Positions 22,194 to 22,310 of a DNA stretch of 64,000 nucleotides are shown piece by piece. The translations under genes and the position numbers were made by a program. The notes under the pieces are model-generated. The model saw only the letters and a program-made list of their open reading frames with translations. It was not told the origin of the DNA and did no database searches. Positions within the stretch are counted from its first letter, which is position 1; each line of letters begins with the position of its first letter. The DNA is from Escherichia coli (GTDB lineage: Bacteria; Pseudomonadota; Gammaproteobacteria; Enterobacterales; Enterobacteriaceae), in the NCBI RefSeq assembly GCF_024502345.1, contig NZ_JALDNN010000001.1. The stretch is one strand, 5' to 3'.

Positions 22194-22238
22194 ATGAATG
22201 CTGCTATTTTCCGCTTCTTTTTTTACTTTAGCACCTGA
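22194..22238 (+). CDS. pheM: pheST operon leader peptide
   Basis: 14-codon [17 protein letters not shown] with five Phe codons; followed by attenuator. Confidence 0.9.
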
Positions 22239-22287
22239 ATCCAGGAGGCTAGCGCGTGAGAAGAGAAACGGAAAACAGCGCCTGAAA

Positions 22288-22310
22288 GCCTCCCAGTGGA
22301 GGCTTTTTTT
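22288..22310 (+). terminator. pheST attenuator terminator
   Basis: Hairpin gcctcc-cagt-ggaggc followed by seven T, immediately downstream of pheM. Confidence 0.8.

Follow-up and report, generated by a model that had tools for sequence, protein, structure and literature searches.

The DNA analyzed here, hereafter the window, is a stretch of 64,000 nucleotides from Escherichia coli, in which thrS, infC, rpmI, rplT, pheM, pheS, pheT, and ihfA follow one another in this order. The analysis concerns the interval between rplT and pheS, where an identical RefSeq record carries two features at matching coordinates, “Phe leader region” and “pheM: pheST operon leader peptide PheM”. The genes and signals of this region are as follows, with the basis of each assignment in parentheses.

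22080-22109, + strand: intrinsic terminator of rplT, with stem AAAGAGGGAG / CTCCCTCTTT, loop CTAGT, and a T-rich tail (read from the sequence)
22127-22155, + strand: candidate pheM promoter, TTGACT (22127-22132), 17-nt spacer, TTCAAT (22150-22155) (sequence, conservation)
22179-22183, + strand: Shine-Dalgarno-like AAGGT, 11 nt before the pheM ATG (AAGGTAAC nearly invariant in the upstream alignment)
22194-22238, + strand: pheM leader open reading frame (ORF) of 14 codons, ATG at 22194, TGA at 22236-22238 (translation, RefSeq, identity with K-12)
22209-22229, + strand: regulatory codons F6 (TTC), F8 (TTC), F9, F10, F12 (TTT) (within attenuator segment 1)
22330-22474, no strand assigned: imperfect palindromic intergenic repeat of ~145 bp in the pheST 5' untranslated region (UTR), outside the attenuator (folding, genome comparison)
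22521-23504, + strand: pheS, regulated gene (RefSeq annotation of the identical record, ORF list)
23519-25906, + strand: pheT, regulated gene (RefSeq annotation of the identical record, ORF list)
from 25911, after pheT: ihfA (RefSeq annotation)

The segment 22060-22530 is present in 5425 of 5426 complete E. coli genomes, at an identity of 95-100%, and RefSeq gives it the pheM and Phe leader annotation in these genomes. The counterpart of pheM in K-12 MG1655 is b1715, annotated as “pheST-ihfA operon leader peptide”, and from the rplT stop codon through the candidate promoter, the leader, and the attenuator (22072-22338) the two sequences show 0 differences. In addition, the whole model of the Rfam family RF01859 (Phe_leader; positions 1-125 of 125) aligns to 22188-22312, scoring 75.0 bits against a gathering score of 55 (E = 2.7e-12), and no other Rfam family comes close to threshold in 20500-23000.

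The ATT start codon of E. coli infC is known for its part in autoregulation. In the upstream part of the region, RefSeq places the start of infC (IF3) at such a non-canonical ATT (20826-20828), and because of this start codon the mechanical ORF list opens the infC frame late, at 20934.

The pheM reading frame and its upstream signals

The initial annotation had proposed, from the letters alone, a 14-codon ORF with five Phe codons beginning at 22194. Translation of 22194-22238 gives exactly this product, and every coordinate is correct. The Phe codons begin at 22209, 22215, 22218, 22221, and 22227, so that they make up five of the 14 codons. When all 763 ATG-initiated ORFs of 8-30 codons on both strands of the 64-kb window were compared, pheM was the sole one with at least 5 Phe within 7 residues, and no other showed 5 identical residues of any kind in 7 positions.

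Judged from its sequence, the terminator at 22080-22109 marks the end of the upstream thrS-infC-rpmI-rplT unit, and its hairpin (GAGGGAGC...GCTCCCTCTTTT) is kept in all aligned Enterobacterales. The candidate promoter motif sits just past this terminator. TTGAC(A/T) and TTTTCAATA recur at equal spacing in Citrobacter, Enterobacter, Superficieibacter, Pantoea, and Mixta, and this conservation across several genera suggests that transcription of the leader probably starts downstream of the TTGACT/TTCAAT motif. A consensus promoter scan did not list the candidate, since position 2 of its -10 hexamer is not A.

Folding of the leader and of the downstream spacer

Three hairpins can be drawn from the leader transcript:

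22207-22275, + strand: protector (1:2) hairpin, -30.5 kcal/mol (folding, pairing kept in relatives)
22244-22293, + strand: antiterminator (2:3), -16 kcal/mol (constrained folds)
22284-22310, + strand: intrinsic terminator (3:4), -14.4 kcal/mol (folding, T7 run at 22304-22310)

In the protector, 22248-22275 is the partner of the strand carrying the Phe codons (22207-22232), and the stop codon sits in a small hairpin at the apex (22234-22245). In the antiterminator, 22244-22252 and 22254-22257 pair with 22278-22283 and 22287-22293. The terminator consists of a 10-bp stem, 22284-22293 / 22298-22307, with loop CAGT. It had been described beforehand as a GC hairpin with a T7 run at 22288..22310, a description that agrees with what we found: the GC core, GCCTCC (22288-22293) / GGAGGC (22298-22303), occupies 22288-22303 and is followed by exactly 7 T. 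The terminator ends 211 nt upstream of pheS and thus lies between the leader ORF and the first structural gene.

Mutually exclusive hairpins, which the initial annotation had named as the feature to look for by folding, are present. The antiterminator shares 7 of the 10 nt of the terminator 5' arm (22287-22293) and 9 nt with the protector, so that it excludes either of them, whereas the protector and the terminator have 0 nt in common. The 131-nt leader region as a whole has a minimum free energy of -53.8 kcal/mol, compared with -35.0 +/- 3.7 kcal/mol for dinucleotide shuffles (z = -5.1), and 0 of the 200 shuffles folded as well. Without a ribosome, the full leader folds as protector plus terminator.

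In equilibrium folds of the complete leader, the antiterminator never formed, whatever the ribosome position, because the terminator is favored once its 3' arm exists. Since the terminator always wins at equilibrium, the decision between the two structures must be kinetic and must fall during transcription. Such a kinetic choice during transcription is also what the accepted model of attenuation holds. We therefore set the equilibrium folds aside as a test of the model and used folds of the nascent transcript, in which the RNA ends at 22293 or 22297, before the terminator 3' arm, and the ribosome footprint is held single-stranded. Under these settings, a ribosome with F6, F8, F10, or F12 in its A site makes the antiterminator the fold of lowest energy. 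Without a ribosome, the protector forms and the antiterminator does not. Nor does the antiterminator form with the stop codon in the A site; the footprint then extends to 22248 and masks the antiterminator 5' arm. Altogether, in these modeled folds the choice of structure is set by ribosome position, as it is in leader-peptide attenuators.

The attenuator also contains a strong Shine-Dalgarno-like motif, AGGAGG (22243-22248), and, 7 nt beyond it, a GTG at 22256 that opens a 9-codon ORF closed by TGA at 22283-22285. A second leader ORF formed by this AGGAGG and the GTG mini-ORF was considered and rejected, as most other genera have GTA in place of the GTG. For the same reason, AGGAGG is most likely a side effect of being complementary to CCUCC in the terminator arm.

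Beyond the attenuator, folding predicts a long-range helix between 22176-22194 and 22309-22324, which would close the whole attenuator and cover both the Shine-Dalgarno sequence and the ATG of pheM. This helix is possible only in read-through transcripts, and by eye its downstream arm is not conserved in other genera. For the repeat at 22330-22474, further downstream, the predicted RNA structure is a long hairpin (-56.6 kcal/mol, z = -4.8). Of the complete E. coli genomes, ~88% carry the repeat at this position and ~12% lack it; the number of copies per E. coli genome is 1-8, with a median of 5, and the 64-kb window holds no further copy. Neither RefSeq nor K-12 carries an annotation at 22330-22474, and a literature search on the family of this repeat returned nothing specific. 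Its resemblance to the ERIC primer cores is weak (9-10 nt).

Conservation of the leader in Enterobacterales

Relatives of the leader were sought by scanning one genome per species for the codon pattern FRFFFYF, which matched at least 120 stretches. About 100 of these are chance matches in unrelated AT-rich genomes. Among the matches listed, 19 are usable Enterobacterales loci from six families, and the genera among them include Citrobacter, Enterobacter, Superficieibacter, Pantoea, Mixta, Rahnella, Yersinia, Pectobacterium, Acerihabitans, Budvicia, Providencia, Photorhabdus, and Xenorhabdus. The leader lies between rplT and pheS in 17 of these 19 listed loci; in the remaining two (L027 and L076), the match is just upstream of pheS and the locus stops short of rplT. 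Seven codons are fixed by the pattern, so their conservation is circular and the variability of the leader peptide is not measurable in this way. Outside the pattern, the match belongs in all 19 loci to a short ORF that closes two codons later with S(T/A)-stop, and in 11 of the 19 the ORF starts with MNAAIF. When eight loci from other genera were tested against Rfam, Phe_leader passed its gathering score in seven. The distance from the pheM stop codon to pheS ranges from 113 to 349 nt across the relatives' loci among the matches listed, which suggests repeated insertions and deletions in the spacer.

The leader alignment shows an identity of 80% per column. Pairing is kept in 91.5% of cells for the protector (19 distinct sequences), in 94.8% for the antiterminator, and in 96.1% for the terminator, compared with 37-76% of cells in a slid-register control in which the partners were moved by 1-3 columns, a control that is biased in that the structures came from the E. 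coli sequence. The GC core of the terminator is invariant in the relatives, and the antiterminator pairing is kept through A-to-G changes, as G-U. When the leaders were folded singly and without a ribosome, all 20 species gave protector plus terminator; with the Phe codons masked, all 20 gave an antiterminator sequestering 7-9 nt of the terminator arm.

Compensatory changes are few in this nearly invariant sequence: the protector has 3 such pairs, the antiterminator 1, and the terminator 0, and the shuffle controls, at 19/500, 205/500, and 500/500, respectively, are unremarkable. The covariation is weak because the sequence is almost invariant, and low covariation is to be expected, since most nucleotides serve two helices and segment 1 is also a reading frame. 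As far as the alignment goes, the comparative evidence is one of conserved pairing potential, not of statistical covariation.

Attenuation of pheST and its relation to known systems

We are almost certain that the Phe-rich leader and the hairpins upstream of pheS make up E. coli pheM, a leader peptide with a transcription attenuator by which the ribosome mediates control of the pheST(-ihfA) operon. The identification of the element as the pheM attenuator of pheST, already made in the initial annotation, is carried by the full-length Rfam match, the RefSeq annotation, the identity with K-12, the mutually exclusive hairpins, and the conserved position between rplT and pheS. The element itself is known already, annotated, and represented in Rfam, and nothing about it is new. 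Fayat et al. (1983) and Springer et al. (1985), both in J Mol Biol, reportedly contain the primary descriptions of pheM attenuation. In more recent papers, too, pheM figures as a leader under attenuation control, with reference to Trudel et al. (1984) and to earlier work on pheMST (PMC5371410, PMC9291695), which lends the attenuation reading further support.

The proposed mechanism runs as follows. Transcription would start just downstream of the rplT terminator, at the candidate promoter, and the 14-codon pheM ORF would be translated while it emerges from the polymerase. When charged tRNA-Phe is plentiful, the ribosome would reach the UGA at 22236, and its footprint would mask the antiterminator 5' arm (from 22244). 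If the ribosome has gone or never loaded, the Phe-codon strand and 22248-22275 would form the protector. In both cases, 22284-22293 would be free to pair with 22298-22307, and transcription would end ahead of pheS, at the T7 run. Under a shortage of charged tRNA-Phe, the ribosome is expected, in line with the literature, to stall on the five Phe codons (22209-22229) and to keep segment 1 unpaired, so that 22244-22257 could pair with 22278-22293 once the latter is transcribed. By taking 7 of the 10 nt of the terminator 5' arm, the antiterminator would leave no terminator, and read-through into pheS and pheT would follow. For the in vivo response to tRNA-Phe charging, we rely on the literature.

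Three rival explanations were weighed, each of which explains less than attenuation does. An intrinsic terminator without regulation, or one left over from the rplT unit, beside a chance short ORF and with no sensing of Phe would fit the thermodynamic dominance of the terminator in all equilibrium folds and the statistically weak covariation. We nevertheless consider it very improbable: rplT already has its own conserved terminator at 22080-22109, the Phe-rich ORF is unique in the window, and the length, start, and stop of this ORF are conserved in six enterobacterial families although the search pattern forced only 7 codons. The maintained complementarity of the antiterminator, with its A-to-G changes kept as G-U, and the match to the Rfam leader model argue against it as well. 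T-box regulation of pheST is common among Gram-positive bacteria, and this background, together with the highly structured nature of the region, is what would favor a ribosome-independent RNA switch in which uncharged tRNA-Phe, in a T-box-like manner as in Firmicutes pheST leaders, or a protein binds the leader. However, the Rfam covariance models returned no T-box or other riboswitch match in 20500-23000, even at E <= 1, and the element is only ~125 nt long and without specifier-loop architecture. Moreover, where the Phe codons sit with respect to the alternative helices is enough to account for the switch, with no added factor, and we give the ribosome-independent switch hardly any credence.

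The main role of the element could also lie in an RNase III processing site that controls the decay of pheST mRNA, with attenuation being secondary. Cleavage in the pheM leader has been obtained in vitro, and the downstream message decays faster in the wild type (PMC5371410). Furthermore, the RNA-seq site at K-12 position 1799278 (PMC5371410) corresponds to window position 22186 and thus falls inside the helix that only read-through transcripts can form. Yet the same study treats the cleavage as a layer added to the known attenuator (PMC5371410), and relatives outside E. coli keep the three attenuator helices but, by eye, not the long-range one. Processing as the main role is, in our estimate, exceedingly improbable. 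Attenuation by the translating ribosome remains our reading of the locus.

It is unlikely, if somewhat less so than any of these three rivals, that the palindromic repeat alters the read-through pheST mRNA or that the read-through helix is an RNase III entry site coupling attenuation to decay. If this were true, the repeat would act on stability, processing, or translation, and strain-specific set-points of phenylalanyl-tRNA synthetase would result. The polymorphic repeat is the only possibly useful by-product of the analysis. For the attenuator, the outcome is a clean confirmation of a textbook regulatory element: pheM is one of the classic cases of an aminoacyl-tRNA synthetase operon tuned by the charging of its own tRNA, and this picture is unchanged here.

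Compared with the systems already described, the closest is K-12 pheM (b1715), which shares with the window the DNA of the attenuator without differences, the peptide, the annotation, and the synteny rplT-pheM-pheS-pheT-ihfA; the 8 differences between the two rplT-pheS spacers are confined to the palindromic repeat further downstream (22339-22429). In the Rfam model RF01859, the protector and terminator helices are aligned to the window, but the consensus structure represents the terminated conformation only and does not include the antiterminator. The small apical hairpin of the window aligns poorly to this model, with low posterior probabilities.

Among other attenuators, trpL and hisL, as described by the Yanofsky model, belong to the same class, in which translation of regulatory codons selects between an antiterminator and an intrinsic terminator, although the regulatory amino acid is another one. 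Unlike in his and trp, the transcriptional pause of pheM is not stabilized by NusA, and compensatory hairpin mutations do not rescue it (PMC9291695). On these grounds, the pause-hairpin step in the classic model cannot be taken as established in pheM and is less secure there than in his and trp. The leader pheL of the biosynthetic pheA operon, which lies outside the window, is known to share the logic of a Phe-rich peptide combined with protector, antiterminator, and terminator. The two leaders differ in peptide and locus, and whereas pheL controls the gene for a biosynthetic enzyme, pheM controls an aminoacyl-tRNA synthetase.
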